A stretch of 55,888 nucleotides of DNA from Candidatus Delongbacteria bacterium (GCA_007124045.1 SLFX01000108.1:1-55888); one strand, 5' to 3'; positions 5,930-39,337 are shown, counted from the first letter of the stretch. Numbers and translations are program-made. The notes: a model not told the origin generated them from the sequence alone.

Positions 5930-5949
5930 TTTACACCCGATCCTTAATT

Positions 5950-6564: not shown

Positions 6565-6589
6565 AATTCTGATTCCTCAGATTTAAGTT

Positions 6590-8488: not shown

Positions 8489-8569
8489 AGTCACCTTTTC
8501 CGTTCTTATATTTATTTCTGATATTTTATTGCAAACCTTCACACATCACCTCAAATTCACGAATAGGTG

Positions 8570-9842: not shown

Positions 9843-11066
9843 TTATGGCGTTTTGGCAAGCCTGAAACCGTGATCGACCATACTCGAAAATGGGGAGCTG
9901 TAACGGAAAGAGACCCGTGAGTAAAATGCGTTTCTGTACCAGTTCCCTCCGCGCAGTACTCTCTTTGAACCGTCCGCAGGTCCGTCCGGGCCTCTGGGAT
10001 TGATCTTATCTTCTTCAGTGTACATGTCCCACCAGTCCCAGCACCATTCCATCACATTTCCGGCCATATCGTAAACTCCGTAGGCGTTCGGCGGAAAACT
10101 TCCCACGGGCGAAACACTGACGGGATAACCGGGATGATTGCCTTCAGTAAGACTTACATCGTATGAATAATAAGGTTCTCCATCTGACCAGAAGCTTAAA
10201 TAATTGGCAGATGTATCGCCTTCAGAACCGTGGGAGATGGTGTCGCCGTCCGGAAAATTCTTGCCGTCAAGACCGCCCCTGGCCGCGAACTCCCATTCAG
10301 CTTCAGTCGGAAGTCTGTATCCGTCGGCAGTCCAGTCGCATATAACTGCATCCCATGCAGGGTCTGTACGATAAGGAGGAATACCCCAGTCATCAGGATC
10401 GGTCGAACCGAGAATGGTATAGGCAGGTGTTAAACCTTCGGCAATACTTCTCAGGTTACAGTACCTTAATATATGGTACCAGAAAACTTTGTAAGCCGGA
10501 TAATTATCTCCCTGGCCGTGCGTATAGGTGGCAGACGGCATATAATCTGTCCATTCTTTTTGAGTTACAGGATATTTCCCTATATAGAATGCATCTACTG
10601 TTACCTGATGGACAGGTCTTTCCCAATAGCCGCCTTCGCCTGAATGATCTCCCATGTAGAAAGTACCGCCCGGAATAAGAACAAATCTTTCCTCGGGCTC
10701 GACCGTAACATTGATCGTGTCGGATATTCCTACATAACCTTCAGTGCAGTAAGCCTTTGCGTATATCGAATGAGAACCAATACTGCCTGATGTATTCCAT
10801 AAAAATTCAAACGGTGATTCTGTAATAGTGTTTTCGAGTTCGTTATTTAGGTAGAATTCTACACAGGAAATCGTTCCCGCGAATGTAACATCCGCACTGA
10901 CCGTAACTATTTCTCCTTCAGTGAACACTGAGCTGTCATCTATATCTATCAGACTTATCTCAGGAATTACGGGGTCTGAGGGTGCCGAAGGACTGTCCTT
11001 TGAACACGACCAGAAAATCAGACCCGTAAAAGCCAAAAATGCAAAAATTATTCTAAATTTACTCAT
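9843..11066 (-). CDS. formylglycine-generating-enzyme (SUMF1/FGE-sulfatase) domain lipoprotein with N-terminal Ig-like domain
   Basis: C-terminal hallmark RVLRGGNWYRNAFYSRVSFR...HGFRLAK, plus AGNVMEWCWDW. ATG 11066 follows GGAG and yields the lipoprotein signal FTGLIFWSC. The ORF could extend to 11093. Confidence 0.8.
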   Translation of the reverse strand: MSKFRIIFAFLAFTGLIFWSCSKDSPSAPSDPVIPEISLIDIDDSSVFTEGEIVTVSADVTFAGTISCVEFYLNNELENTITESPFEFLWNTSGSIGSHSIYAKAYCTEGYVGISDTINVTVEPEERFVLIPGGTFYMGDHSGEGGYWERPVHQVTVDAFYIGKYPVTQKEWTDYMPSATYTHGQGDNYPAYKVFWYHILRYCNLRSIAEGLTPAYTILGSTDPDDWGIPPYRTDPAWDAVICDWTADGYRLPTEAEWEFAARGGLDGKNFPDGDTISHGSEGDTSANYLSFWSDGEPYYSYDVSLTEGNHPGYPVSVSPVGSFPPNAYGVYDMAGNVMEWCWDWWDMYTEEDKINPRGPDGPADGSKRVLRGGNWYRNAFYSRVSFRYSSPFSSMVDHGFRLAKTP

Positions 11067-11219
11067 AATATTTCTCCGCAGATTCTTCATCATATCAAAT
11101 ATAACAATTGAGCTTCATCAATGCAAGAATTTAATTAGAGTGTATTTTGCGTCAAACATCATCCCCTGTTGCTTTTCTCACAATTTTTGTTTAATTTCCA
11201 AAAAAATCAGGAAGCTGTT

Positions 11220-13733
11220 ATGAAACCTTATTTCCTTCTTTTTATAATTTTCGCCGCTACCCTCTCCGCCCGTTACTCGACCTCGAAATACGATTCGCTT
11301 TTCATTCAGGCGTCGGCTTCCTTCCATAATCATCAGGTCTATGTTGAACCGGCGAGGCAGAAGATCATTGATATCGGCGAGTACATTATTCCTTTTCTTG
11401 CGGAAAAATCTTCGTCACGCCAGCCGAGGGAGTATCACGCACTTCGAAATCTTTTTTCCAGAATAGACCCGAAGCTGTCTTCGAGGTACCTGATGGATGT
11501 GATCAGAATGGAGGACAGGGAAAGTTTTAACGCTGCGGTTGAATTTCTCGGCCTGTCGAAGTACGAGCGCGGGCTTGAATTTCTGGAGAGTTTTCTTTCT
11601 TCGGATTCTTCGTGGGTGAAAGTCGCGGCTTTAAAAGGCATCGGTGATCTTAAGGATCCTAAAAGCCTTCATGTTCTGCGCCCGTTTAAGAACGATGAGG
11701 ATTTCCGGATCAGATGGCAGGTCGCGGCCGCTTTCGGCAAAATGGACACTCCCGAAGGCGACAGGGAGCTTATTTCGATGCTCGGCGACTCTCTTCAGCT
11801 TATTTCACACACTGCTCTGCGATATCTCGATCTGCATCTTACTGCCGATTCGTTAAAACAAAGGCACAAACTTCTCGCTAAAAAGGACGGCCCGGTTCTT
11901 CTTGATCTTCTCAGGAAAAAGCATATTGAGGGCATTGATGTTCCTCTTATTTCTGAAGCTTACCATGAGATTTCAGCACCGGATTCTGTCTCTCTTCTTA
12001 CGATGGAAGATTTACTTTCCGACGATTCGGTGATCTATTCCGCGCTTGAAAAGCTCTATATGTCAAGAAGAGATTTCTTTCTGCCGGTCAGGACTGAAAA
12101 GGAGGTGTTTCTCTTTCCTTCCATAGCCGAAATGTTCAAGGACCCGCTTCTTCAGGCTGCTCTTCCGGTCGAAACGGTCAAAGATTATGATATTTTTCCG
12201 AACATTGATTTTAAAAGTCTATGCAAAGAGTTTCAGATCCCCGTTCCGTCATACGATCCGGGCAGGGTTGATATTGACTCATTCATAAAAAACCACTCTT
12301 ATATTACGGCTGTTTTCGATTCGGCATGGCATAAATATCCCGACATGGAAAAGATCATAAATGAAGTCAGGGAAAGATATTTTGGAGAAAGAGAGACTGA
12401 AAAGGATCTTCCCGGCGACGATATTTCGGTAATGATAAGAAACAGGCTTGACGAGCGAAGGTATTATGACGAAAGCCGGAAGTTCTACAAAGAGACGCTT
12501 AAGGACTTTGAGCCTTCTTATATTATTAAGGCGGGAATAATGGCGTACAGGAATTTTCTCGCGCTTAAGGAATTTGTGAAGGAAAACGATATTGAGCCTT
12601 TTGAGAAAGACACTCCGTTCGGCAGAGTCCGCGCAGGCAGTAAAGGAGACGATGTTTACGAAGGGAGCTATTTTCTGATAATTGACAGGGGCGGGAACGA
12701 TACGTACAGGCTGAATAATAAGGATCAGCGTTTTTCATACATTATTGACCTTGAAGGGAATGACAGATATATTTCGGACGGGTTCGGGCCGGCTTCGGCT
12801 TTTAACGGGATATCTTTCCTGTACGACGGTAAAGGTGATGATATCTACGACTGCAAAAACTACTCTCTGGCCTCTTCCCTGTTCGGTTTTACTGTTCTTC
12901 TTGACGGAGGCGGGAACGACAGGTTCATTTCGAACATCCATTCTCAGGCGGCGGCCACCTTCGGATACTCGTGCCTGTGGAACGCGGGCGGTAACGATGT
13001 CTATATCGCCGAAATGAAATCCCAGGCGTATGCAGGAGTGCACGGCTATGCGGTCCTGGTTGAGGATGAGGGCAACGATAACTATACGCTGTCAGGCAAT
13101 CAGGTGGATGTTCTCCGCTATTCCGACCATTTTATGTCCATGGGTCAGGGATATTCATTCGGCGACCGGGACCACGCCGCCGGGGGTATTGCGATGCTTT
13201 TCGACAAGCAGGGCAACGACAACTATGTTTCCGATATATTCGGTCAGGGCGGCGGCTACTGGTTCGCGTTCGGAGCGCTGTACGACCTCGCCGGCAACGA
13301 CAACTACATCTCGTACCAGTACTCGATGGGTTCGGGCGTGCACCTCGCCTTCGGAACCCTGATAGACCTTGAGGGAGATGATTCTTACAGATCTAAAGGC
13401 GTCTCGATAGGCTGCGGGCACGACTATGCCGGCGGAATGTTCTTTGACCTTCAGGGCAATGATTCGTATCACGCTGAATCACTTTCGATCGGCGGGTCCA
13501 GCGCGAACGGGATCTCGGTGTTCTTCGACGGCGCGGGCGACGACCTCTACTCCGCGCACCAGCCCAACACGATGGGCTGGTCGGACTGGCGGCGGGATGC
13601 CGGATATATAAGCATATTTATTGATATGAGCGGAAAGAACAGGTATTCGTCACCCGCCGGCAAAAGCGGTAAAAAGTGGTACCGCGGAACATGGGGCATC
13701 GGGCTCGATCTTGATCACAAGATCAGGAAATGA
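11220..13733 (+). CDS. secreted HEAT-repeat protein with C-terminal 12x GNDxY beta-solenoid-like repeats
   Basis: ATG 11220 is preceded by AGGAAG and gives the signal peptide MKPYFLLFIIFAATLSA. The track's TTG at 11169 is less likely. The N-terminal part has HEAT-like helices (VKVAALKGIGDLKDPKSL...RIRWQVAAAFG). The C-terminal third is repetitive. Confidence 0.75.
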   Translation: MKPYFLLFIIFAATLSARYSTSKYDSLFIQASASFHNHQVYVEPARQKIIDIGEYIIPFLAEKSSSRQPREYHALRNLFSRIDPKLSSRYLMDVIRMEDRESFNAAVEFLGLSKYERGLEFLESFLSSDSSWVKVAALKGIGDLKDPKSLHVLRPFKNDEDFRIRWQVAAAFGKMDTPEGDRELISMLGDSLQLISHTALRYLDLHLTADSLKQRHKLLAKKDGPVLLDLLRKKHIEGIDVPLISEAYHEISAPDSVSLLTMEDLLSDDSVIYSALEKLYMSRRDFFLPVRTEKEVFLFPSIAEMFKDPLLQAALPVETVKDYDIFPNIDFKSLCKEFQIPVPSYDPGRVDIDSFIKNHSYITAVFDSAWHKYPDMEKIINEVRERYFGERETEKDLPGDDISVMIRNRLDERRYYDESRKFYKETLKDFEPSYIIKAGIMAYRNFLALKEFVKENDIEPFEKDTPFGRVRAGSKGDDVYEGSYFLIIDRGGNDTYRLNNKDQRFSYIIDLEGNDRYISDGFGPASAFNGISFLYDGKGDDIYDCKNYSLASSLFGFTVLLDGGGNDRFISNIHSQAAATFGYSCLWNAGGNDVYIAEMKSQAYAGVHGYAVLVEDEGNDNYTLSGNQVDVLRYSDHFMSMGQGYSFGDRDHAAGGIAMLFDKQGNDNYVSDIFGQGGGYWFAFGALYDLAGNDNYISYQYSMGSGVHLAFGTLIDLEGDDSYRSKGVSIGCGHDYAGGMFFDLQGNDSYHAESLSIGGSSANGISVFFDGAGDDLYSAHQPNTMGWSDWRRDAGYISIFIDMSGKNRYSSPAGKSGKKWYRGTWGIGLDLDHKIRK
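12669..13646 (+). repeat. in-frame protein repeat array: 12 copies of a hydrophobic-strand + G(N/D)DxY unit
   Basis: The motifs are GGNDTY, EGNDRY, KGDDIY, GGNDRF, GGNDVY, EGNDNY, QGNDNY, AGNDNY, EGDDSY, QGNDSY, AGDDLY and SGKNRY. They are spaced about 22-35 aa apart. Confidence 0.8.
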
Positions 13734-14957: not shown

Positions 14958-15034
14958 AATCACATATGATCCTTCCAGCCAGAAGCGACCGCATAGTCCA
15001 TGCACCTTTTGAAGATATCATAATTCATTTTCGG
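14958..15034. repeat. 77-bp direct repeat, intact-gene copy (partner at 13748-13824)
   Basis: There are two mismatches between the copies (13771 t versus 14981 a; 13787 g versus 14997 t). The copies are 1210 bp apart and bracket the XRE gene. Confidence 0.85.
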
Positions 15035-16084
15035 GCAATAAATATTCTCAGACTCAAGCAAAGGCGCAGTCCTGTCCGTCAAAAACACCCTTCTGTCGGC
15101 TATATACGGAAGATACATTTTCACATAACTCTCGAAAAGCTGCTCAAGACCGTTTTTGTCCTTTATCTCTCCCTCATCGCCGTTGACTACTTTCAGCCCT
15201 TCTATGCCAAAATACTCCGAAGTGTATTCAATGAGCTCATTCAGATCGCCCGCACCGCTGTTCACTATATGAAAAATTCCGTCTTCGGTATTTTTTTCGA
15301 TAATGGCGGTCATGGCTTTGGTAAAAAAATCCACAGGTATGAGGTTGAGCTTTCCCCCCGATATACTTTTCAGCCTTATCGGCATTACAAGCTTCCCGCC
15401 CTCTTTCAATTTGACGCCGAGAGCTTCTGCCCTCTTCCCAACTTTTTCGAGGATATCTTTGAGCATAATTTCCTTTATGAAGGAAATAGCTTTGACAGGA
15501 TAATAAAGCGCGTTGAATTTCCTGCTTCTTCCTGTACCTGATTCGCCGTAAACTATCGAGGGCCTGTAGATCGAAAGTTTTATCCCGTTATTTTTGCAAA
15601 AATCGTAAGCTTTTCTTTCGGCTCTATTCTTTGTTTCCTCATAGACATTTGTGAATTTTTCCGGATAAGTCAATTCTTCCGGGCAGTCTCCTTCGACCGC
15701 ACCCGCGCTGTATGCCGTGCCGAGATAGTGAAAACGGGAAGCGCTTTTACTTTTGGCCATTTTAAGCACTTCTTCGAGGTATTGAAGGTTGGACGCTTCT
15801 ATCTCTCGCCTGTTCCTTTCGGCAAAATCAGTATCCGATGCACAGTGAATTATCTCCTGGCCTTGATGGCAATGATCACCGATGCTGATGTTCGATATTT
15901 CGTCTTCCGTGAGTCCGAACCATTCTGCTGCCCGCCTCACTCTCGTTTCGGCGTCATACCCGTTCTTCGGCCTGACCGATAGAGTGATCTGATAATTTTT
16001 CCTGCAGAGAGCCGCAACAAGATAGCTTCCGAGAAATCCGGTCCCTCCCGTTATGAAAAAACTCCTGCTGTTCTCAATCGGCAT
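14960..16084 (-). CDS. SDR-family NAD(P)-dependent thioester/acyl reductase-like protein
   Basis: It has the Rossmann motif FFITGGTGFLGSYLV and the catalytic-type YEETKNRAE (YxxxK). ATG 16084 overlaps the upstream stop (ATGCCGATTGA). The longer ORF to 16144 is less likely. Confidence 0.7.
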   Translation of the reverse strand: MPIENSRSFFITGGTGFLGSYLVAALCRKNYQITLSVRPKNGYDAETRVRRAAEWFGLTEDEISNISIGDHCHQGQEIIHCASDTDFAERNRREIEASNLQYLEEVLKMAKSKSASRFHYLGTAYSAGAVEGDCPEELTYPEKFTNVYEETKNRAERKAYDFCKNNGIKLSIYRPSIVYGESGTGRSRKFNALYYPVKAISFIKEIMLKDILEKVGKRAEALGVKLKEGGKLVMPIRLKSISGGKLNLIPVDFFTKAMTAIIEKNTEDGIFHIVNSGAGDLNELIEYTSEYFGIEGLKVVNGDEGEIKDKNGLEQLFESYVKMYLPYIADRRVFLTDRTAPLLESENIYCPKMNYDIFKRCMDYAVASGWKDHM

Positions 16085-17915
16085 ATAGAATATGCTCCTT
16101 TCTCGCGAATCCCTGATAAAGCGTGTACCTGATCCACTTGACATCGGGATGCTCTGAGCTGAATCTTCCGATGAATGCCGCTATGTCCCCGAGAGCAGCA
16201 CCGGCCTTTCCTCTTTCCGCGGGATCGGTATGATCAAGATAATAGTCGTACTCAAAAACCGCCCTTTTTCCGAAATCGAGCGGGGTAACAAAACCGTAAT
16301 CGTGTCTGATATTGTTTTTTAGTCCGATAGCGTCAAATCCTTCATTCAGTATGGCTATAATTTCAGGATCTGCGGGGGTATAAACGATTATCGCGAGAAC
16401 ATGCTTTTCCCTGCCCATCCTCGAGCTGAGTATTCGAAGTTCGTTAAGCTTAACCAGATCTGTCATGGCGGGCTCTTCGTAAACCTGCCCGAAAAATCCC
16501 CGCAGGTCTTCGGGAAAAGCCGATGCTATGTTTTCCGGCGACGGGTCCAGAGCCGCCTCGATAAGCGGCCTTATGCTTTGTTCCGACAAAAACTCATAAG
16601 GTTTTTTGTCGCCGCACATCTGAGCTATCAGATCCGGCCATTCCGGTTTCGCAAGGGAAGGCAGGCCGAGAAATAATGTTCTGAAAAGATCATTGTCAAT
16701 AACACCGGGTTTTATTGATCTGACGGCCTCTATATCGTATTTGTCGCCGATGACAAGAACGGGGTAATTAATCTTGAGAGTGCGTGTAAAAACATTTTTT
16801 ATTTTTTCAGCCAGCTCTATACTCGGAGACATGAAAACCGAAATATATTCTCCGCCGAGTATACCTATGCCCGTGCCTATCCTCCTGAAAGAAAGCTCGC
16901 GAGCAAATGCAACAGCATCCTTAAGGTCTTCGAACGGGACGAGTACGCCTGTTTCGTCCTCAGGAATACGGTGCAGCTTGACTTCAGCCCATATGCAGAT
17001 GCCGGGAAGCTCCCTGTCCTCTTTCGAGTAGGCAAAAAGATTTGGAGAATCGTGATCGTGCATCGAAAAACGCTTCCCGTCCTTTCCGACAAAACCGGCA
17101 GTTACAAGGTTGTCCGCGTTTATTCCGTATGAGGCCGAGAAAAGAGAGAATATGCCCGAACACATAATGTTAGCGCAGACCATTGCGGCGGGTTCGGCGG
17201 CATTTATCCTAAAACCCCTCGCAAGAGCTTCTTTCTGAAGCTCGTATGATGTTACCCCCGGCCCGACCCTGACCTTATAATTCCTTTCGTCGAAAGAGAT
17301 CTCTTTCATCCTGATAAGGTCTATAACGAGCCCTTCGCTCATGACAAAGCCCATTACGCTCGAGCCGTTCCCGCGGACAGCATAAGGTACAGAATGCTCG
17401 GCGCACAGCTTTACTATGGCCGCAACCTCATCGGCTGTTTTCGGAACGGCCGCATATTTGGGCATCCTCGGGGGCGCGACGGGGCACGGGTCGTGCGAAT
17501 AGCACACAAGTACCGCCGGATCACAGCTCGAATATTTTTCGCCTGTGATGCGCTTTAACGCGAGGATGAACTCATCCTCGTCCGGCGAAGCCGGCTCCCC
17601 GTTCGCCGAAACATGCCCGGCGATATGTTCCTTCAGAGCGTGCATGACGCTCTGCGGCCTGAGCTCTGTGACAAAGCAGCACTGCCTGTCGCAGATGCCG
17701 CACAGAGTACAGGTGGCGGCGGCCTCGACCGCCGCCGGAGTGACCGGAACGGTACCGTCAACCAGAGCTTTATAAAGGTCCATCCTCCCCTGCGGGTAGA
17801 ATGTGACAAATCCGCGTTCGGGCCCTGATGCGCAAAGCCCTGTACCGAGATAATCTATCTTGCACATCGCATAATGCCTGCAGTTCGATGCTGTTCTGTA
17901 AGCTTTTTCTTTCAT
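16074..17915 (-). CDS. Fe-S cluster-binding / FAD-linked (PCMH-type, FAD_binding_4-like) oxidoreductase
   Basis: 613 aa. The N-terminus is Cys-rich (CRHYAMCKIDYLGTGLCASG ... CTLCGICDRQCC). This is followed by an FAD-binding-4-like segment (VPYAVRGNGSSVMGF...VIDL...VRVGPGVT). Confidence 0.6.
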   Translation of the reverse strand: MKEKAYRTASNCRHYAMCKIDYLGTGLCASGPERGFVTFYPQGRMDLYKALVDGTVPVTPAAVEAAATCTLCGICDRQCCFVTELRPQSVMHALKEHIAGHVSANGEPASPDEDEFILALKRITGEKYSSCDPAVLVCYSHDPCPVAPPRMPKYAAVPKTADEVAAIVKLCAEHSVPYAVRGNGSSVMGFVMSEGLVIDLIRMKEISFDERNYKVRVGPGVTSYELQKEALARGFRINAAEPAAMVCANIMCSGIFSLFSASYGINADNLVTAGFVGKDGKRFSMHDHDSPNLFAYSKEDRELPGICIWAEVKLHRIPEDETGVLVPFEDLKDAVAFARELSFRRIGTGIGILGGEYISVFMSPSIELAEKIKNVFTRTLKINYPVLVIGDKYDIEAVRSIKPGVIDNDLFRTLFLGLPSLAKPEWPDLIAQMCGDKKPYEFLSEQSIRPLIEAALDPSPENIASAFPEDLRGFFGQVYEEPAMTDLVKLNELRILSSRMGREKHVLAIIVYTPADPEIIAILNEGFDAIGLKNNIRHDYGFVTPLDFGKRAVFEYDYYLDHTDPAERGKAGAALGDIAAFIGRFSSEHPDVKWIRYTLYQGFARKEHILYAD

Positions 17916-24042: not shown

Positions 24043-25686
24043 TTATATATCCGCCAGTTCTTTTGCCTTATACATCAGTTCTATAGCTTTAATCACGAAT
24101 TTATCCTTCATAACACGGATTTTTGGGTACTCGCTTCTTTCCTTAAAGAACTGCCTTGCGATACTGTATTTTATATCATTGATTATCCTGTCTTTGTCCT
24201 GCTTGAACTGTTCTTTAGTGTGATAAAATTCACCTCTTGTCATTTCCTCTCTAAGGGGAAGAACTTCTTTAAGATTCACTTTATTTCGCACCATTGCCTC
24301 TTTAAACCCTTCCAGCATATTTTCATCTACTTTGAATTCATTGTAGAATTTGTCAAAATCATCTTTCCAAACAGGATTCTGGTTGTTATTAAAATATTCT
24401 ATTGCAAAATCCTGAAACACTCTCTGCCTTAAAAGATCTGTCATGAGTCTTGAAGTAGGATCGTATGTTATGACAGAATCGGGGAAAATTCCGCCGCCGC
24501 CGAATACTGTACGGTTCTTCCTGAGGGTAAAAAACTCTTCGGGACCTTCCTCGTCATCATTTTCGTCTAAGTTGCCGTCAGCATCAAAAAATCTGTCGAG
24601 ATAATAACTTTCCATACCGTCGTCATAAGGTCTCTGTATAAGCCTTCCTGTTGGCGTATAGTATCTCGATATTGTTATTCTTGCAACCGATCCGTCACCC
24701 AGATCGAACGGTCTCTGAACCAGGCCTTTTCCAAAAGATCTGGTCCCGAGTATAAGCGCTCTGTCATGATCCTGCAGAGCACCGCTGACTATTTCTGATG
24801 CTGATGCAGATCCGGCGTCTATAAGTACTACTATTGGAAGTTTACTGTATTTTGCAGGTTTTTTTGAATAGTATTCTTCATTGAAATCGGAAAAACGGCC
24901 TTTTGTGTAAACTATGAGTTTACCCGGTTCGATGAATTTTTCGACGATCTCTACAGCCTGATCCATTAGTCCGCCCGGATTTCCCCTGAAGTCAAGTATA
25001 AGTCTTTCCATACCTTTTTGATCCAGGGACTTTAAAGCATTATCAACCTCTTCTGAAGTTCTGGCCGCAAATCTGTTTACTGATATATAGCCTGTTATTC
25101 CGTCATCAAGCAAAACCTCGGCAGAAACACTGTAAATCGGGATTTTTCCCCTTATGATCTCAAACTCCATAGGTTCATCTGTACCCTGCCTCAAAACAGT
25201 CACAGTAACTTTTGACCCTATAGGGCCCTTCAGCCTGTCAAAAACCTCCTGAGTAGTTATATCAAAAGCGGTTATACCGTCTATTCTTATTATCCTGTCC
25301 CCCGGCATCAGACCAATTCTGTCCGAAGGAGTATCCGGTATGGGAGAGACTACTGTAAGATATTTATTCCTGATCTCAAATTCTATTCCGATACCTCCAA
25401 ACCCACCCTTGAAATCCTCTTCGACAGTCCTCTGTGTTTCTGCCGGAATATAGGCGGAATGGGGATCCAGAGCTTTCAGCATTCCCTCTATTGCACCTTT
25501 CATCATTTCATCTATATCGGGTTCCTCAAGATATACATTGTCAACGATCCTTAAAATGTAGTTCATCTTATGGAAATAATTGATCGCACTTCCCGATGAA
25601 GCTTCCGCTTCTTCGTATTTGTAGCTTAACGAAATGGCCGCGATCAGTAAAAAGACTGCAACCATATAAAAATTTTTGTCTGACAT
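24043..25686 (-). CDS. S41 family carboxyl-terminal processing peptidase with PDZ domain
   Basis: It has a PDZ segment (SPIPDTPSDRIGLMPGDRIIRIDG) and the catalytic region LIDAGSASASEIVSGALQD...GTRSFGKGLVQ. ATG 25686 has a GGAG upstream; the ORF extends to 25713. Confidence 0.85.
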   Translation of the reverse strand: MSDKNFYMVAVFLLIAAISLSYKYEEAEASSGSAINYFHKMNYILRIVDNVYLEEPDIDEMMKGAIEGMLKALDPHSAYIPAETQRTVEEDFKGGFGGIGIEFEIRNKYLTVVSPIPDTPSDRIGLMPGDRIIRIDGITAFDITTQEVFDRLKGPIGSKVTVTVLRQGTDEPMEFEIIRGKIPIYSVSAEVLLDDGITGYISVNRFAARTSEEVDNALKSLDQKGMERLILDFRGNPGGLMDQAVEIVEKFIEPGKLIVYTKGRFSDFNEEYYSKKPAKYSKLPIVVLIDAGSASASEIVSGALQDHDRALILGTRSFGKGLVQRPFDLGDGSVARITISRYYTPTGRLIQRPYDDGMESYYLDRFFDADGNLDENDDEEGPEEFFTLRKNRTVFGGGGIFPDSVITYDPTSRLMTDLLRQRVFQDFAIEYFNNNQNPVWKDDFDKFYNEFKVDENMLEGFKEAMVRNKVNLKEVLPLREEMTRGEFYHTKEQFKQDKDRIINDIKYSIARQFFKERSEYPKIRVMKDKFVIKAIELMYKAKELADI

Positions 25687-25696
25687 TTTTACTCCT

Positions 25697-26902
25697 TTAC
25701 CGACTTTTAACAAAGATATTTTTTAATATATTTTCCTCGTCTTCCTGCAGTTCTATACCCCTTCTCAACATTACGGTTTTTACTGTATCAATAGTCTTAT
25801 TGAAGGGATACTTTAGCAGTTTTTCCCTGCCGCCCCAGTTAAAATCAGGAATGTTCCTGGGAGGAAAACCCTCTCCGTAAACATTGCAGGCGACGCCTAC
25901 TACAGAACCGGTGTTTATCATAGTATTTATTCCGGTTTTGGAATGATCCCCCATTATTAAACCGGCAAAAAGCGATTCTGTGTCTATAAGCCTGCCGTTA
26001 ATTTCGACTTTGACGAAAGAATAGTTATTCTTCAGATCTGAATTATTGGTATCCGCCCCCAGATTACACCACTCACCGATATAAGAATGACCCAGAAACC
26101 CCTCATGCTGTTTGTTGGAATAGCCGTGTATAACAGATCCTTCGATCTCGCCTCCGGCCTTGCATACATTTCCTATCGAAGTGTTTTCATATATTCTTGC
26201 ACCTGATTTAATGATCGTTTTTTTTCCAATGTAAACCGGACCTGTTATTACGCAGTTGTACATGATATTTGCATCATCATCAATTACAACAGGACCTTTT
26301 GAGGCATCAATAACTGTTCCCGCACCGACTTTCGCGGTTTTACTGATAAGTACCTGATCTTTATTTTCAATAAAAACTCCGGTTATTCTAGGCTTCTTCC
26401 ACCGGTCCTCCCGCGAAAGTATCTCTGTATCATTTTTTATCCATTCACCTGTACTGTTCACTATGTCCCAGGGATACCGTATAACTTCAAGGATCGGTCT
26501 CACATTAGTCTTAACCCCGTTTTTTACACTTTCAACAAACTCGGATTTACAGGTGAACTTTCCTGTAAGCAGGTTGCCGTTATCATCTGATGAAAATCTG
26601 CTTTTCTGTTTTTCAATTGCACTGAAATATTTAATAAAATTCTTGTTGGGCAGTATCCTTGCATTAATTGCTATAAAACTCTCCCCTTCAGGAAGATCCA
26701 TGACTCCTTTGAGCCCTGATCTTTTCATTGCGGGATCGAAAGCTTTCCTGTAAAAAAAATAAAATTCCCGGTCTTTGAATATTCTGGTGTATCTCTCCCG
26801 GACGCTGAATATCCCGTCCCTAAGTTCGAATACAGGCCTTGTTTTTGTTAAAGGCCCAAAGTTTTTATATCCCGAATCTTCAAATAATACTATTTTTTCC
26901 AT
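25697..26902 (-). CDS. GlmU-like sugar nucleotidyltransferase / hexapeptide-repeat (left-handed beta-helix) protein, putative
   Basis: 401 aa. The N-terminus IVLFEDSGYKNFGPLTKTRPVFELRDGIFS resembles the alternative bacterial GlmU-like family. The C-terminal half has hexapeptide-like repeats. Confidence 0.55.
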   Translation of the reverse strand: MEKIVLFEDSGYKNFGPLTKTRPVFELRDGIFSVRERYTRIFKDREFYFFYRKAFDPAMKRSGLKGVMDLPEGESFIAINARILPNKNFIKYFSAIEKQKSRFSSDDNGNLLTGKFTCKSEFVESVKNGVKTNVRPILEVIRYPWDIVNSTGEWIKNDTEILSREDRWKKPRITGVFIENKDQVLISKTAKVGAGTVIDASKGPVVIDDDANIMYNCVITGPVYIGKKTIIKSGARIYENTSIGNVCKAGGEIEGSVIHGYSNKQHEGFLGHSYIGEWCNLGADTNNSDLKNNYSFVKVEINGRLIDTESLFAGLIMGDHSKTGINTMINTGSVVGVACNVYGEGFPPRNIPDFNWGGREKLLKYPFNKTIDTVKTVMLRRGIELQEDEENILKNIFVKSR

Positions 26903-33291: not shown

Positions 33292-33867
33292 TCAGCCGAT
33301 GATAAGATCCTGAGTACTGATCTTCGGAACATGGTGAACACCGTCATCATCTCTGTAATATCTTGTGTCCTGACCGCCGCCTATATCATCTATAACGATC
33401 TTTTCTTTAGGTTTTCCGATCGCTACGACAAGAGCGATCTCATACTCTTCATTATCAATTCCAAGAAGATCAGACAGAAGAGGTTTGTTTACCGCTCCGA
33501 ACATGCAGCCGCCCAGTCCGCTTTCGACGGCACCGAGAAGCATGCTTTGGGCCATAATGCCCGCATCAAGACTGTTCGGCGTGGTTATATCCCTTCTCTT
33601 TACGATAACTATGTATGCCGAAGGTCTTTCTCCTTCTTCAGGTCCGTCCCAGTCTTTAAGCATCATTGCCCATTTGAGGCAGGAAAAGATTTTGGTGTTC
33701 TTTTCTTTATCGCATGACAGAATAAATCTGAGCGGCTGCATGTTGCCTCCCGAGGCTGAAAATCTGGCAAGTTCCACCAGTTTTTCGAGCTGAGCGCGGC
33801 TTACCTGTTCATTCTGATAAAATCTTCTGTAGCTTCTGTTCTTCTTTACCAGTTCCAGTACAGTCAT
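33292..33867 (-). CDS. nitroreductase family protein
   Basis: 191 aa with the N-terminal signature RRSYRRF-like (KNRSYRRFYQNEQV) and SASGGNMQP. GGAGG lies upstream. It starts 38 nt downstream of module copy 2. Confidence 0.8.
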   Translation of the reverse strand: MTVLELVKKNRSYRRFYQNEQVSRAQLEKLVELARFSASGGNMQPLRFILSCDKEKNTKIFSCLKWAMMLKDWDGPEEGERPSAYIVIVKRRDITTPNSLDAGIMAQSMLLGAVESGLGGCMFGAVNKPLLSDLLGIDNEEYEIALVVAIGKPKEKIVIDDIGGGQDTRYYRDDDGVHHVPKISTQDLIIG

Positions 33868-33905
33868 GATTAAGCCTCCCTATAATGGTTTATCTACGCC
33901 CGCGA

Positions 33906-34664
33906 TCAGTGCATCTGTTCGTCATCAAGTCCGGGCTCTTTATGTATAAATTTGAAGTAAATGATCAGGAATATGCTTATAGCTATGCTCAGAACAAGAG
34001 AGGCCTCCCAGTCCGTGGCAAGCACCTGTGCCCTGCCTATGAAAAGGGCGATCCTGCCCATTACCGTAGCTCCGAAAGAAGCTCCGAAATTTATCATCAG
34101 GATAAGTATGCCGATCCTGGCCGTCCTGCCCAGTATTCCTTTGTGGGGTTTCGAGAAGAAAAAGTACATCAGGGCGCAGAAAGTTCCGAAAATAATGACG
34201 AACCATTTCGATATCTCAAAAAAGGTCGGATACTCGAGAAGAGGTTTCATCATGTCGGCCCCCTGAATGAAAAGCTGCTGAACCGTAGTGGGTATGCTGT
34301 ATCCGGCCACATAGGCGAAAACGAAAGCGAACCAGTAATTTGCGATCCAGCCTTTGTTCCTTGAAAACCTGAAGAACATCGTGCTTCCGATCAGAAGCCA
34401 AAGTATCAGTGTGAGGTCATAAGGCTGAAAATCATAATACGCATCTTTCAGCGGCCTGATAAGGTAAGGGACAATGACCATATTCCAGCTCCAGACCCAT
34501 CCGTAACCGAGTGAAATACCGAGAAAAGTGTTCTCGCCCAGCTTATACAGCGGATTATCCCTGAAGAGAAAAGAAAGCATCATCAGAGTGAAAAGAACGC
34601 TTAGCCATGTCTGAAATGTCGGGTTCATTATGGTATTGTCTATCAACAGGTCAATAATGTGCAT
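33906..34664 (-). CDS. module subunit D (copy 2), polytopic membrane protein
   Basis: 252 aa, colinear paralogue of 4338-5084. Confidence 0.8.
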   Translation of the reverse strand: MHIIDLLIDNTIMNPTFQTWLSVLFTLMMLSFLFRDNPLYKLGENTFLGISLGYGWVWSWNMVIVPYLIRPLKDAYYDFQPYDLTLILWLLIGSTMFFRFSRNKGWIANYWFAFVFAYVAGYSIPTTVQQLFIQGADMMKPLLEYPTFFEISKWFVIIFGTFCALMYFFFSKPHKGILGRTARIGILILMINFGASFGATVMGRIALFIGRAQVLATDWEASLVLSIAISIFLIIYFKFIHKEPGLDDEQMH

Positions 34665-34675
34665 TTTAAAAGCTC

Positions 34676-35518
34676 CTATCTGTTTTTCTTCTGCTTTCTT
34701 TCATAAAAATAAACGAAATTGCCGAGTCCTATAAACACGAACATTATAATGTGGGACATTGTAAGAGATGCCATTCCGGCATTAGCTGTGTTGTTAAAGG
34801 CAGGATCCGCACCGTTCGCTATCCTCAGATTCTCGTATTCGGCAGCTCCCTTGAGTCCGAAAAGCATCCCGTCAAGCTGTCCGGTCTGAAGAAAGGGAAT
34901 AAAATCCGGACCGACAACCGCAGTTACTCCGGCTCCCATTCTGAAACCGAATCTTCTCTGAAGGTAAATATAGCTTTCGGGGTGAGAGGAGCCGGCGTAG
35001 GACATCATGTATTTTATATCCCCGAAAGTCCTTATTCCCTCGAATATTCTCCCCTCTTTGCTGAAGGTGCCCTTGAAATCGGAATACATCGAGAAAAGCA
35101 TCATGTCAACACCGATAGGCAGATAGCCGAGGTGAATGAAATCGACCCCCTCCTCAATGTGTTCATATCCCGGTTCTGATCTGATCTTTTCAACAAGATT
35201 CTGCCCGAGGCTTATTCCCATTATCGAGGGATAGTATATGAATACTCTGAGTCTGTTATCGAAGCACTGTTTTAAGGTCTGCTCGGCCATGGGAAGAAGC
35301 TCCGCCTGCAGTGTCGGGTCGAATGCCCAGTCAATAAAAACAGCATCGCCTTCTTCAAGGCTATTGATTATGTCATACACCCTTTGTGTTTCTTTTGATA
35401 CCGCGAAATCCTGCTTAAACAGTCCCGGTACCCAGAAGGGTATTATACATGAAAGAAAGATAAGCAGGTAAATCCACCTTTTATCCAGCTTTTTTAGTTT
35501 GTAAACAATTTTTTCCAT
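34676..35518 (-). CDS. module subunit C (copy 2)
   Basis: 280 aa, colinear paralogue of 5084-5929. Shared blocks are GDAV(H/F)IDWAFDP, GVD(Y/F)IH, IPF(I/L)QTGQL and RGAAEYE/KGAAEYE. Confidence 0.8.
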   Translation of the reverse strand: MEKIVYKLKKLDKRWIYLLIFLSCIIPFWVPGLFKQDFAVSKETQRVYDIINSLEEGDAVFIDWAFDPTLQAELLPMAEQTLKQCFDNRLRVFIYYPSIMGISLGQNLVEKIRSEPGYEHIEEGVDFIHLGYLPIGVDMMLFSMYSDFKGTFSKEGRIFEGIRTFGDIKYMMSYAGSSHPESYIYLQRRFGFRMGAGVTAVVGPDFIPFLQTGQLDGMLFGLKGAAEYENLRIANGADPAFNNTANAGMASLTMSHIIMFVFIGLGNFVYFYERKQKKNR

Positions 35519-35536
35519 ATATCCCAGTACCTTATT

Positions 35537-36151
35537 TTATTCAGACAGATGTGCTCTTTCAAGACCGAAAGCTATCCTGATCATCATTGTAAGTCCGCCG
35601 AGAAAAGCCCCGAAAAGAATAGCTCTTTTACCTGCGCTTGTCGGACCGTCCATTATCCACTCGCCTATAACAGGGATCTTGTCCCACATTGCTTCCGCTA
35701 TCGGCATTTTTCCAAGCATGATGATAATCGCGGCTAAAAGAAGGAAAGCCGATTCAACTGATTTTATCCTGAACGAACGGTATGATGCGGAAGCGACATA
35801 GAAGGCAAGCAGCGAGAATACGGTCGCGTCAAGAGGTACAAAACCGTAGGTAAACATAGCATCGAACGGAGTACCCGGACTTATTCCTCTGATAGAAGCG
35901 AAAAATATCATTAACGCTATTATAGACATCTGATAGACTGCGTACCACCTGTCATTGTTGTATTTAATCTTCTTATAGTTCACCCTGACCACATTCACTA
36001 TACCTACCAGCAGACCCACGATCGCCACATTTCTGAATCCCGTCATGAAGAGCATTTTCCAGTTCTCGAAGAACCTGCCCGCCAAAAAGAATTCAAGATA
36101 CCATCCGATCGTGGCTAAAAATCCGATTAAGAGGGGTATTTCTTTTTTCAT
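35537..36151 (-). CDS. module subunit B (copy 2), polytopic membrane protein
   Basis: 204 aa, the same length as copy 1, with about 59% identity by hand count. Confidence 0.8.
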   Translation of the reverse strand: MKKEIPLLIGFLATIGWYLEFFLAGRFFENWKMLFMTGFRNVAIVGLLVGIVNVVRVNYKKIKYNNDRWYAVYQMSIIALMIFFASIRGISPGTPFDAMFTYGFVPLDATVFSLLAFYVASASYRSFRIKSVESAFLLLAAIIIMLGKMPIAEAMWDKIPVIGEWIMDGPTSAGKRAILFGAFLGGLTMMIRIAFGLERAHLSE

Positions 36152-36173
36152 ATATCAAGCCCTAAATTAAATT

Positions 36174-37994
36174 TTACCTGGTGTAGATCAGATCCTGAAG
36201 GAAAGTCCATTCCGAATTGATCGTGAGCATAATAGTACCTATGATGAAAAGCACACCTATAACCAGCTTGGCGTAATCCGAGAGTTTCAGGTTTGTCAGT
36301 ATCTGCGGATCTCTTGAGATATAAGCCGCCGCAGCATAAAGTTCCTCACCTATTAGTGTATAGTCACATGCCGTTATGAAGAACGGTATCTGCGAAACCG
36401 CTGTAGTTCCGGCAACCTGAATTGCGCCTGCCGAAAAACCGGCTTCGGAAATGAGAAGAGATTCGGCGAAATAGTAACCGAAGTGAAAAGCTGTAGCCGG
36501 CTTCTTCCTTGCCAGAATGCCGGCAAGACCGGCCGCAAAAGCGAACTGATCGTACGCTATAAAGAAAATGTTGTCCTTTTTATGATCCTCCGGATAGCCG
36601 GCATCAAGAAAACCCGAAGCCACCATCTCTTCAGAGATCTGAAGGATGATAGGGTCACAGGTCGGCACATATATCTCGGCTTTGAACTCCGCTACTTTTT
36701 TAGCGATGCTCTTTAAGATAAGCATACTGGCGATCGTATCAATATTAGTGTAACCGCCGAGACCCGAATCATAAACGATAGGCTTTCCCATTTCCGTCGC
36801 TCTTCCTATCGCATCATCTATGGCATCAAGACCGGCGATCTTTCTGATGAACAAACCTTCCCTGTTTTTTCTGACCTGAAAGAATACATAAAAGAAAAGG
36901 ATCATAAAAAGAAGAGTGCCTATGAGCACATTTTTTCTGAAGGTTCTGAAAACGGGAGTTCTGTCATAGATCACATAAGAGGTAAAAGTTGAGGTGAGGC
37001 TGCTGTAAAATCTGTTTTTTATCTGAGAGGCGAACATTTCCTTTGCTTCGGGCGAATCCTCATGTATTAATACTATCAGCTCATCCGGTATTTCAAAATG
37101 ACCTATACCGTTTTCTTCCTCCATACCGGCCAGAATATCCGTGGTAAGATAGGTAAGGTCATATCTCATATCCTCACGCAGATCAAAAAGCGTCAGCCGT
37201 TTCATCTCTATCCAGTCTTCCCTGGCATAATTATATTCAAGTCGGGCATTTTCTATCAGCTCTTTCTTCTTTCTGTCTATGTGGAACATTATCCTTTTAT
37301 AATTTTCGGATGTCATCCGCGAAAGAATATATTCGTCAGCACCCTGCTTCTTCAGCTCCTCGTATTCGCTAAGTGCTTCGTACATTTCTTCAAAGTATTC
37401 TTCGTCATAAGCAAGATGATCAACAACCTCAAGATCAGTAATTCCCCTGACAGCTCTAAGTTCGCCGTCGAGTCTTCTCATTTCATTGAGATAATCATCC
37501 ACCTCCGCCAGGTGATTCTCCCAGAGCATATCCTCTCTTTCACTTACGAACCGCTTGATCTTGTCCGCAGCCGCATCCAGACTTTCGTGAAGGTCTTTGC
37601 TGATATAACCCCAGTAAAAATCCCTCGTCGTTATAAACCTGGCGACCTCTTCATAAATTTTATCATCCCTGAGGGCCTTGAAAGCGATAAACTTACGCAT
37701 TTCATACTCGGTCATAGGTTCGCCCAGCCGCTCTTTTTCGACGATATCCAATGTAAAGTCCGGATATGAACTGTAGAAATCTGAAATAAAATCCTTAACC
37801 CTGGGATACAGAATACCAATGTTCCTTTCAGGATCCCAGTTTCTGAATATTTCCATAAGGTCGTTCGCCACTTCTGAGGCAAGAATTTCCTCTTCGGATA
37901 AATTGACATTATCCGTTTCATGCTCAGCTTCAAACTCCCCGCAAAGCCGGACAAAAATAGTCAGGGTGAAGATCAGAATGAGATATTTTTTCAT
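36174..37994 (-). CDS. module subunit A (copy 2)
   Basis: 606 aa with signal peptide MKKYLILIFTLTIFVRLCG. The N-terminal region is homologous but much more diverged than the C-terminal domain, which is highly similar to copy 1. Confidence 0.8.
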   Translation of the reverse strand: MKKYLILIFTLTIFVRLCGEFEAEHETDNVNLSEEEILASEVANDLMEIFRNWDPERNIGILYPRVKDFISDFYSSYPDFTLDIVEKERLGEPMTEYEMRKFIAFKALRDDKIYEEVARFITTRDFYWGYISKDLHESLDAAADKIKRFVSEREDMLWENHLAEVDDYLNEMRRLDGELRAVRGITDLEVVDHLAYDEEYFEEMYEALSEYEELKKQGADEYILSRMTSENYKRIMFHIDRKKKELIENARLEYNYAREDWIEMKRLTLFDLREDMRYDLTYLTTDILAGMEEENGIGHFEIPDELIVLIHEDSPEAKEMFASQIKNRFYSSLTSTFTSYVIYDRTPVFRTFRKNVLIGTLLFMILFFYVFFQVRKNREGLFIRKIAGLDAIDDAIGRATEMGKPIVYDSGLGGYTNIDTIASMLILKSIAKKVAEFKAEIYVPTCDPIILQISEEMVASGFLDAGYPEDHKKDNIFFIAYDQFAFAAGLAGILARKKPATAFHFGYYFAESLLISEAGFSAGAIQVAGTTAVSQIPFFITACDYTLIGEELYAAAAYISRDPQILTNLKLSDYAKLVIGVLFIIGTIMLTINSEWTFLQDLIYTR

Positions 37995-38053
37995 ATATGT
38001 CTCTCTCGACGATTGATTTAGACCTATTTCATACGCTGCAAAATTACCTGCGA

Positions 38054-38082
38054 AATATAAATCAGCACTATAATTTTAACAA
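38054..38082 (-). promoter_or_regulatory. candidate promoter of module copy 2
   Basis: The minus strand reads TTGTTA, a 17-nt spacer, then TATATT. It lies about 60 nt upstream of the subunit A ATG. Confidence 0.35.
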
Positions 38083-38188
38083 GATAATTCGGATGAAATG
38101 CGTTATTTGCTGATAAAGGTAGATATGACTCGTTTTCTTTCTTTTCGCAAGAAAGATTTCAACTACTTATGAGCCTTTGTACTCGAAT

Positions 38189-39337
38189 CTATATTGAAAC
38201 AGCAAGGAAGATCGCAAGGAATGCCAGAAGTATCCCTATGCTCATTTTCATCACGAACATATTTTTGGTCAGGAATTTGTTGAGTTTTTCCCATGTCAGA
38301 CCGTAATAGGCAAGTATCATTATTATCAGCAGAGGGAGTACAAAAAGCAGGTTGTAGAACAAAAGCCATAGTATTCCTCTGAGCCTGAGACCGCTTTCCC
38401 TCGTCATTAGAATAATTGTAGGCAGATAGACCTGGCCCGTGCAGACGGCTTCCAGGAGTGTTACTAGAAAGCCTATTATAAGCGAACCTGTGATGAGTGA
38501 ACCGGTACTCAAGTGACCCGAGATCACCTTTCTTATTCTGAACTTGACCGATTTTGGAAGCTGAAGTGAAATACTGTCGGTTTTGCCGGTTATTTTGTAG
38601 GTTATGGCATCTTTGAAACTGTATAGTGCCACACCTCCGGCAAATACCACAGCCGACCATTTTATGATATGCGATACTATTCTGTAGGACTGGAGAAAGT
38701 TCAGTACATGAAAAGCTCCGACCCCCAGCATAAAATATGTTATAAAGACCGCAAAAGTATAAGACATTCCTATGGCAAGTATCTCATTCCGCTTATGCTT
38801 TTTCACAGATAGATAGGAGATCAGAAATATCATCGTGGCTATGGCGCATGGATTTACACCGTCAATAAGTCCTGCCGCAAGAACGCCCATGAAGGTAAAA
38901 CCGGCTGCTCTGCTTGAGAGAAGTCCGAACATGTCATCGTCAACTTCATCGTCTGTATATACGACCCACCGGTCTTCCATGTTAAGATATTGTGTTATCA
39001 GATCTTCAGATTCCCTCTTTATTTCGTTATCCCCGAGTAAAAAAGTGTCTGCCACGAAAAGAACTATCGGCATTGACCTTGGGGTCTGATAGAACTGTTC
39101 CATCCGGTCAAGAAGTGCGAAATGTTCGGGATTTTCAAGAATAAAATTCGAGTATCTTATTTTCTCAGGATATTTTTGCGCAAAATGTTCTAAAATATCT
39201 TCCTGAATATCTTTGCAGACCGCACACATCTCAGAACCGAAAAACTTCAGTTCGAGTTTCTCTGAAGGTATAAAATTCGAGAACAGATAATTTGAGGCTA
39301 AAAATATAAACGCAATTATCAGTGAGTGTCTTTTCAT
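38189..39337 (-). CDS. DsbD/CcdA-family thiol:disulfide electron-transfer membrane protein with N-terminal CxxC domain
   Basis: 382 aa with a signal peptide and an extracytoplasmic region carrying CAVC. The membrane core carries the DsbD-type motif GLIDGVNPCAIATMIFL and a second Cys in LLEAVCTGQVY. Confidence 0.7.
   Translation of the reverse strand: MKRHSLIIAFIFLASNYLFSNFIPSEKLELKFFGSEMCAVCKDIQEDILEHFAQKYPEKIRYSNFILENPEHFALLDRMEQFYQTPRSMPIVLFVADTFLLGDNEIKRESEDLITQYLNMEDRWVVYTDDEVDDDMFGLLSSRAAGFTFMGVLAAGLIDGVNPCAIATMIFLISYLSVKKHKRNEILAIGMSYTFAVFITYFMLGVGAFHVLNFLQSYRIVSHIIKWSAVVFAGGVALYSFKDAITYKITGKTDSISLQLPKSVKFRIRKVISGHLSTGSLITGSLIIGFLVTLLEAVCTGQVYLPTIILMTRESGLRLRGILWLLFYNLLFVLPLLIIMILAYYGLTWEKLNKFLTKNMFVMKMSIGILLAFLAIFLAVSI

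Follow-up and report, generated by a model that had tools for sequence, protein, structure and literature searches.

This study focused on a four-gene module, A-B-C-D, that occurs twice in a 55,888-nucleotide (nt) stretch of DNA from Candidatus Delongbacteria (GCA_007124045.1, SLFX01000108.1:1-55888; the whole stretch is called the window), once near its start (copy 1) and again 29 kb away (copy 2, at 33906-37994). An original prediction, made from the sequence alone, had described the latter as a second, diverged and intact copy of the same module, and this was confirmed by open reading frame (ORF) calls and global alignments; what had been missed is that the module represents a widespread, uncharacterised and typically multi-copy system. 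Judged from its sequence, copy 2 is a true paralogue of copy 1 that remains functional, and all four subunits of an inner-membrane complex are encoded by each copy. The joint reading, that the two are paralogues, that they arose by duplication within the host lineage, and that both belong to an uncharacterised A-B-C-D system, is given a probability of about 0.8, a figure that excludes any proposal about mechanism. The genes are as follows (A1 to D1 and A2 to D2 denote the subunits of copies 1 and 2; aa, amino acids; identities are from global alignments).

33906-37994, minus strand: copy 2, whole module A-B-C-D, from ORF calls
36174-37994, minus strand: A2, 606 aa, ORF call; Pfam PF20539; 47% identity to A1 (277/590)
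35537-36151, minus strand: B2, 204 aa, ORF call; 121/204 identical to B1 (59%)
34676-35518, minus strand: C2, 280 aa, ORF call; 51% identity to C1 (140/276)
33906-34664, minus strand: D2, 252 aa, ORF call; 58% identity to D1 (144/248)
4338-8542, minus strand: copy 1, whole module, from ORF calls; neighbourhood conserved in contigs L090 and L091
6590-8542, minus strand: A1, 650 aa from a GTG start
6590-8488, minus strand: A1 with the alternative start, 632 aa from the ATG at 8488, with an AAGGTGA ribosome-binding site
5950-6564, minus strand: B1, 204 aa, ORF call
5084-5929, minus strand: C1, 281 aa, ORF call
4338-5084, minus strand: D1, 248 aa, ORF call

All eight ORFs are intact and are separated by 11-25 nt or overlap by 1 nt, and copy 2 mirrors copy 1 in gene order, strand and gene lengths, as had been proposed. 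The hand count of 121/204 identities for the B subunits proved exact, and the near-identical 25-aa run reported for D extends to 28 aa with one mismatch (SKWFVIIFGTF[C/S]ALMYFFFSKPHKGILG). Alignment scores of the four subunit pairs lay 44-56 standard deviations (sd) above those of composition-preserving shuffles, so that the similarity reflects homology and not transmembrane (TM) bias, the one circumstance that the original prediction had named as able to undo it. The C-terminal 267 aa of A are colinear, again as claimed, and 71% identical between the copies, while the N-terminal parts are 27% identical; the latter domains are nonetheless homologous (z 15.6, phmmer E 1e-13). Compared as DNA, the copies show 55-65% identity, their longest common word is 18 nt, and the same codon is used at 42-48% of the residues that are identical between them, which excludes recent gene conversion and, in agreement with the prediction, an assembly duplicate or a recent duplication; the near-identical DNA of a recent segmental duplication or an assembly duplicate was not found between them. 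The same layout of the copy 2 contig was recovered independently in at least six assemblies, and contigs L002, L095 and L096 reach 10-19 kb past the module on one side or the other. Proteins identical to those of the window are encoded on contigs of the metagenome-assembled genomes (MAGs) GCA_007119205.1 and GCA_003564855.1 and of several metagenome assemblies, and all of the closest named homologues come from Candidatus Delongbacteria. The window is ordinary chromosome, with genes that include LptF/LptG, FtsW/RodA, SpoIID, a CtpB-type protease, a Tricorn-like protease, RecO, formate-tetrahydrofolate ligase and Ogt.

The origin of the two copies was explored with trees of the individual subunits and of all four joined (1,038 columns), built by neighbour-joining (NJ) on corrected p-distances, with 100 bootstraps, from 106 complete modules of at least 12 phylum-level lineages. 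Whichever subunit was used, and also with all four joined, the Delongbacteria modules, five in number, were monophyletic in 100/100 bootstraps, and within them the copy 1 type (window, L090, L091) and the copy 2 type (window, L010) were each monophyletic, also in 100/100. The branching therefore points to duplication of the whole operon as a unit within the Delongbacteria lineage, before its sampled members diverged; subunit phylogenies had been put forward by the original prediction as the means of separating duplication from horizontal acquisition, and they favour the former. Addition of 48 further Delongbacteria-type B proteins to the B tree gave the same two clades, and both copy types are present in several Delongbacteria MAGs. 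One of these, with the locus-tag prefix PHF33, contributes to both B clades; its three B paralogues (P0009, P0018 and P0034) comprise one of copy 2 type and two from different subclades of the copy 1 type, a pattern that suggests either a third module in some Delongbacteria or a mixed bin. In a library clustered at 50% identity, D proteins of the Delongbacteria type accounted for a single hit, at E 7e-131, the next being at 4.6e-43.

The codon-level comparison that had been suggested was only partly informative. The proportion of synonymous differences (pS) was 0.68-0.83, which is saturated, between orthologues and paralogues alike, while that of nonsynonymous differences (pN) was 0.065-0.25 between orthologues and 0.24-0.36 between paralogues. 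The ratio of nonsynonymous to synonymous rates (dN/dS) was 0.03-0.07 between orthologues where dS was computable; between paralogues it is not estimable, because the synonymous sites are saturated. Saturated pS together with low pN indicates that both copies are under strong purifying selection. The spot counts from which a higher GC content of copy 2 had been suspected (27/60 versus 20/60) were exact, but the difference sits in the GC content of third codon positions (GC3) and not in the variable parts of the genes, the DNA of the A N-terminal region having a GC content of 0.423 in copy 2 and 0.426 in copy 1. The GC3 of copy 2 genes (0.48-0.585) exceeds the mean for the window (0.429 +/- 0.058) by 0.9-2.7 sd, with D2 (0.585) the highest of any gene in the window, and that of copy 1 is average. 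Native genes with high GC3 include those at 11169-13733 (0.559) and 16074-17915 (0.554) and that for formate-tetrahydrofolate ligase (0.497), and the copy 2 orthologue in L010, from another species, shows the same mild excess over its neighbours. Since synonymous sites are saturated even between orthologues, the excess cannot be a vestige of a foreign origin, and its simplest reading would be a codon bias linked to expression.

A scan of one genome per species recovered at least 565 A-B-C-D loci, of which the best 80 were used for detailed counts, with further counts on 41 loci that have full flanks. A module was defined in this analysis as co-directional, tightly spaced A, B, C and D genes, each matching its family hidden Markov model (HMM); the models were iterated, and built from other phyla on called ORFs. 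Both window copies match all four, in A-B-C-D order. The loci represent at least 12 phylum-level lineages, mostly uncultured, and among the best 80 are members of WOR-3, Zixibacteria, Ignavibacteria, Cloacimonadota, Fermentibacteria/Aegiribacteria, Eisenbacteria, Edwardsbacteria, Stahlbacteria, Elusimicrobia, Poribacteria, Planctomycetota and Myxococcota, as well as one Bacillota MAG. The order A-B-C-D was seen in 69/80 loci, the other 11 being cut at a contig end or partly detected, and median intergenic gaps within modules were 1-10 nt; a natural C-D fusion protein (P0235) exists outside the window. The fixed order, the short gaps and the fusion argue for one obligate hetero-oligomeric membrane complex formed by A to D. 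Proteins with the DUF6754 domain (PF20539) that characterises A fall into more than 7,785 clusters at 90% identity among the matches listed, with homologues about 50% identical to A2 across phyla, and of 1.84 billion cluster representatives, 1,689 belong to the D family at E <= 1e-3. One module was present in 27/41 full-flank loci, two in 6/41 and three in tandem in 8/41, so that tandem arrays of two or three account for 14/41. Array positions 1, 2 and 3 in Zixibacteria and Ignavibacteria form three separate old clades, and in one Fermentibacteria MAG the copies are scattered over two contigs (L031 and L055).

In other phyla two further genes adjoin the module or array, usually directly upstream, and where they were seen there is one pair per array (for example L007:1038-4448, L008:2789-5731 and L012:6320-9327, plus about 20 other loci). 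One, in 14/41 full-flank loci, encodes a GlmL-like actin-fold ATPase of about 600 aa (PF13941, E 1e-129), and the other, in 16/41, a soluble protein of 375 aa without a Pfam family, with 67% mean column identity across phyla. The pair often has small genes, of about 140 aa, on its upstream side. The N-terminus of the 375-aa protein matches RnfC_N (12/18 members), NQRA_N (8/18) and Biotin_lipoyl (13/18) weakly, and so bears a faint resemblance to the barrel-sandwich-hybrid domain of RnfC/NqrA. Clustering of neighbouring genes in the 80 loci returned as recurrent partners only the GlmL-like, 375-aa and ~140-aa genes, the other recurring neighbours reflecting lineage-specific housekeeping synteny. 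The array-linked ATPase shares PF13941 with GlmL/MutL, accessory proteins of B12-dependent mutases (PF13941, NF040745), but scores 235 bits against an NCBIfam equivalog cut-off of 475, carries an extra C-terminal extension of about 120 aa past the PF13941 match, and is encoded beside membrane modules rather than mutase genes. No HMM match to the GlmL-like or the 375-aa gene was found in the window, and no PF13941 protein between 8618 and 22289, so that the extended arrangement, with both genes upstream of the module, is not seen there. Present in about a third of loci, the two genes would so appear to be facultative or encoded elsewhere, and the A-B-C-D core may work without their products.

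DUF6754 is the most conserved part of the A-B-C-D system. Matches to nearly the full model were obtained for A2 (residues 348-596, E 2e-94, 316 bits) and A1 (E 1e-89, 300.6 bits), both of which pass the Pfam gathering score of 27 bits that served as the threshold for membership. The predicted anatomy of A2 is as follows.

36174-37994, minus strand: A2, with an N-terminal signal anchor, an acidic periplasmic domain of ~320 aa, a TM helix, the DUF6754 cytoplasmic domain and a C-terminal TM helix
36207-36953, minus strand: DUF6754 domain of A2 (residues 348-596), Rossmann-like alpha/beta, with TM helices on either side
36960-37925, minus strand: variable periplasmic N-domain of A2 (about residues 24-345), 27% identity to A1

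Hydropathy peaks of A2 lie at residues 5-23, 356-374 and 574-592, and a weak one at 476-494 falls within the modelled soluble domain. From hydropathy, B2 has about six TM helices, D2 is polytopic, also with about six, and C2 has a TM helix at either end and a soluble domain of about 210 aa between them that is presumably periplasmic, given the basic N- and C-termini; the topologies assigned here to all four subunits are those suggested by hydropathy and the positive-inside rule. B and D are not homologous to each other, and neither are C and A. An alignment of 122 DUF6754 sequences has 27 invariant columns and about 53 more that are nearly invariant, and with it AlphaFold2 gave a model of the conserved half of A at pLDDT 86 and pTM 0.77 (an earlier run with 20 sequences, at pLDDT 59, was too poor for use), in which a long TM helix is followed by six beta strands alternating with helices in a Rossmann-like manner and by a C-terminal TM helix. 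Conserved motifs are placed at strand ends and loops (GRATEMGKP, DQFA, AESL..AE, IQIAGT and QLPFFITACDYTLIGEELY), the usual site of ligands in Rossmann-type folds, and a Gly-rich loop after strand 1 is also conserved. Residues E401, E511, E517, C543, D544, E550 and E551 (A2 numbering) are among those that do not vary. Divergence between the window copies is least in this cytoplasmic domain (71% identity), intermediate in B, D and C (59, 58 and 51%) and greatest in the A N-domain (27%). The Delongbacteria type of N-domain was found only in Delongbacteria loci among all those fetched; in other phyla its position is taken by FN3, by a PQQ/BamB-type beta-propeller, as fused to A in the Bacillota MAG (L080:8312-10774), or by sequence with no Pfam match. 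One B protein carries an FG-GAP insertion (L089:10785-12563), and loop insertions of 300-390 aa occur in the D proteins P0288, P0240, P0251 and P0278; a phmmer search with one such long-insertion D protein found nothing in the PDB. These fusions and large insertions probably sit in periplasmic loops, and family variation in A, B and D is concentrated outside the cytoplasm.

Scans of all eight window proteins against Pfam, NCBIfam and PADLOC returned DUF6754 as the sole significant match, and that Pfam entry covers a single domain of subunit A, leaving B, C and D without a model. Members of B, C and D compared one by one with Pfam at E <= 1 gave only noise, although 11/28 B proteins show a weak, below-cut-off similarity to TMD0_ABC (best E 3e-4). 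No ABC ATPase or MotA_ExbB/ExbD family was matched in the eight proteins by Pfam or NCBIfam, and PADLOC, which covers anti-phage defence, gave one non-significant match (E 0.009). Profiles of A, B, C, D and the 375-aa protein found nothing significant among PDB sequences, nor did a single-sequence search with the GlmL-like protein. Foldseek of the A model against the PDB gave no match at E <= 1e-3, so that the domain, though Rossmann-like and with a Gly-rich loop, has only generic counterparts at E >= 5e-3 (best E 5.5e-3, TM-scores 0.3-0.5, rmsd 5-14 A): GT-B halves, DprA, proteins of the LOG/Moco-carrier type and phosphopantoate-beta-alanine ligase. These matches imply no relationship at family level. 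Ligand-binding members of such folds have conserved residues at strand ends and a Gly-rich loop, as does A, but none of these generic domains lies, as that of A does, between two TM helices as part of a complex of four subunits. In the literature no paper naming DUF6754 or PF13941 was found, nor any on GlmL-like proteins in this setting, on the four-gene system, on its tandem paralogy or on its link with the GlmL-like gene. On these comparisons the A-B-C-D system is rated as lying outside every characterised kind tested, although the activity behind it could turn out to be a familiar one, for instance transport, in a new form.

As to what the system does, a tentative proposal, drawn from sequence and the structural model and held with rather low confidence, is that A-B-C-D works as a translocase or transducer of several subunits, in which a constant cytoplasmic core, ligand-binding or catalytic, is coupled through B and D to periplasmic parts that vary. 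All four subunits would assemble into one hetero-oligomer, with B and D as its membrane core; the cytoplasmic domain of A would bind a nucleotide-like or phosphorylated ligand, and C and the variable extracytoplasmic parts of A would engage a periplasmic cargo or partner. The two Delongbacteria copies would then carry out the same chemistry in the cytoplasm, and what sets them apart would be their specificity in the periplasm or, possibly, their expression.

The surroundings of the two copies differ in this genome, as had been noted, but those of copy 2 are not conserved and are uninformative. The features concerned are these.

4316-4295, minus strand: terminator-like hairpin after D1 (AAGGGCGGATGATTCCGCCCTT; 9-bp stem), then a T run, between D1 and the convergent ogt
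8618-9781, minus strand: gene for a DUF5128/NHL-type six-bladed beta-propeller (Pfam match), directly upstream of copy 1
33292-33905, minus strand: nitroreductase-family gene (33292-33867) and the 38-nt spacer between it and D2, with a GGGAGG ribosome-binding site
37995-38188, minus strand: intergenic region of 194 nt upstream of A2

Copy 1 ends in a terminator-like hairpin beside ogt, in line with the description, and its neighbourhood is kept in L090 and L091, with the propeller gene upstream (orthologues 51-60% identical, in the same position) and ogt, mtnA-like and fhs genes downstream. Beta-propellers recur with the module, in this DUF5128 gene, in the Bacillota A fusion and in L093, where an FG-GAP protein with Por_Secre_tail (10252-11718) is encoded about 3 kb downstream of D, after two opposite-strand genes. 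Copy 2, again as reported, runs without a terminator into the nitroreductase gene; no terminator-like site or hairpin was found in the 38 nt between D2 and that gene, which is probably co-transcribed with copy 2 in this genome. Upstream are genes for a CxxC membrane protein, a DsbA-like protein and a radical-SAM protein. Directly upstream of copy 2 (38189-39337, minus strand) is encoded a 382-aa protein without a Pfam family that has a CAVC motif near its N-terminus and a multi-TM C-terminal half with a weak match to ArsG-family transporters (E 3e-5); its gene has the DsbA-like and radical-SAM genes as neighbours, and the product may be a membrane protein of thiol-redox type that arose by fusion. 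Each copy is preceded by its own intergenic region and a promoter-like match, that of A2 being sigma-70-like (TTGTTA-17-TATATT at 38082-38054; a consensus match only), and neither copy has an RNA element nearby according to an Rfam scan. The nitroreductase and Dsb/radical-SAM neighbours are absent beside the copy 2 orthologues of three other Delongbacteria contigs (L010, L092 and L093), so a functional redox linkage of copy 2 was rejected and the adjacency is treated as a probable local rearrangement without functional coupling. In L092 the copy 2 module abuts a RecO/U32 cluster, which in the window lies about 13 kb from copy 2.

Alternative explanations for the pair were weighed against in-lineage duplication. 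That the similarity is compositional, or that copy 2 is an artefact of chimeric assembly, is a negligible prospect: B and D are hydrophobic, and no other point favours it, whereas the shuffle scores, the extension of conservation into soluble domains and the recovery of the copy 2 layout in independent assemblies all oppose it. Import of one copy from a different phylum, which the original prediction had considered compatible with its GC counts, is highly improbable. The GC3 of copy 2, with D2 at the top of the window, and the differing neighbours of copy 2 among Delongbacteria could be cited for it, but other native genes have equal or higher GC3, the L010 orthologue shares the mild excess, and any foreign composition would long have been erased at saturated synonymous sites. 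The phylogenetic evidence is also contrary, in that the copies are each other's closest relatives against at least 12 other phylum-level lineages, at 100/100 for every subunit, Delongbacteria-type D stands far apart in the library search, both types are widespread in the phylum, and the lineage-specific A N-domain is common to both. A horizontally acquired island would be expected to fall outside the host clade in trees, to carry mobility genes and to have an atypical composition; of these signs only the mild GC3 excess was seen. Several points do weigh against the reading preferred here. The Delongbacteria clade sits on a long stem branch, which brings long-branch attraction into question, and the trees are NJ on corrected p-distances and not maximum likelihood; the shared Delongbacteria-specific A N-domain, as an independent derived character, answers the first concern. 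The GlmL-like and 375-aa genes are absent beside the Delongbacteria modules examined (window, L090-L093), and no characterised homologue constrains the function, the Pfam, NCBIfam, PADLOC, PDB profile and Foldseek comparisons being negative or generic. Lastly, one copy may have moved between Delongbacteria lineages, an unlikely course but the most serious of these three alternatives: the copy 2 neighbourhood is different in every lineage examined and PHF33 has three B paralogues. Set against this, both copy types occur widely in the phylum, the borders of copy 2 carry no integrase, transposase or tRNA gene, the genes on both sides are housekeeping genes, and rearrangement explains the changed neighbourhood equally well, as the position of the RecO/U32 cluster illustrates. 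Duplication of the operon within the lineage thus remains the preferred account of the pair.

Two other proposals concern the nature of the machine. Rnf/Na+-NQR ion pumps have a subunit inventory similar in size and topology, with two six-TM subunits of about 200-250 aa, a bitopic periplasmic subunit and a TM-anchored cytoplasmic subunit of Rossmann type, and the N-domain type of NqrA and RnfC resembles the barrel-sandwich-hybrid N-domain of the 375-aa protein, which weakly matches RnfC_N and NQRA_N. That the module is a distant, cofactor-less relative of these pumps is, by this analogy, conceivable yet very unlikely. The resemblance is one of architecture, without detectable homology: hhalign comparisons of B and D with Escherichia coli RsxA/RsxE, of C with RsxG and of the 375-aa protein with RsxC gave probabilities below 1%, on which homology to Rnf/Nqr was rejected, no member had an Rnf-Nqr or FMN_bind Pfam match at E <= 1, and B, C and D lack an invariant cysteine, so that no Fe-S site of the NqrD/E type is evident. 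There is a somewhat better, though still small, chance that the two modules, instead of being independent isoforms, co-assemble into one larger heteromeric machine, as tandem triple arrays might. In Zixibacteria and Ignavibacteria each of the three array positions corresponds to an old clade that has been retained, and a single GlmL-like/375-aa pair serves a whole array, which would suit such an arrangement; it fits poorly with the 27/41 full-flank loci that have one module, with copy numbers that vary from 1 to 3, and with the window itself, where the copies are 29 kb apart and each has its own intergenic region and promoter-like match.

Some other features of the window were recorded. At 14960-17915 (minus strand) two genes overlap, one for an FAD_binding_4 protein of 613 aa and the other for a protein of 394 aa that resembles fatty-acyl reductases (NAD_binding_4/'male sterility'); both have unusually high GC3 (0.55 and 0.51), and the combination is reminiscent of ether-lipid synthesis of the alkyl-DHAP-synthase type. 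An 854-aa HEAT-repeat protein with a TTG start is encoded at 11169-13733 (plus strand), its GC3 of 0.559 being among the highest in the window. A match to the Rickettsia sRNA47 family of Rfam at 24715-24831 (plus strand; 63.4 bits against a gathering score of 60, partial model) lies antisense within an S41/CtpB protease gene (24043-25713), and most likely reflects conservation of the coding sequence rather than a small RNA.

The duplication itself is ordinary biology, but the system it exposed is not. The A-B-C-D proteins are strongly conserved (A at about 50% identity across phyla) in hundreds of species of mostly uncultured phyla, and for three of the four subunits (B, C and D) no Pfam family, solved relative or paper was found. 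To our knowledge, systems so highly conserved that have no assigned role are rare. Such systems usually prove to have a part in core physiology, for example in transport, energy coupling or the biogenesis of the envelope. It is possible, if rather doubtful at present, that A-B-C-D, together with the GlmL-like ATPase and 375-aa protein where these are present, represents an undescribed class of core envelope machine, with a conserved, ligand-binding engine in the cytoplasm, interchangeable periplasmic modules coupled to it, and paralogues that are variants of specificity. If true, this would be an envelope machine common to much of the Fibrobacteres-Chlorobi-Bacteroidetes (FCB) superphylum, Elusimicrobia, Poribacteria, and some Planctomycetota and Myxococcota. 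The paralogue pair of the window, with the same core and a different periplasmic domain and neighbours, offers a natural contrast within one genome that may guide expression and structural work.

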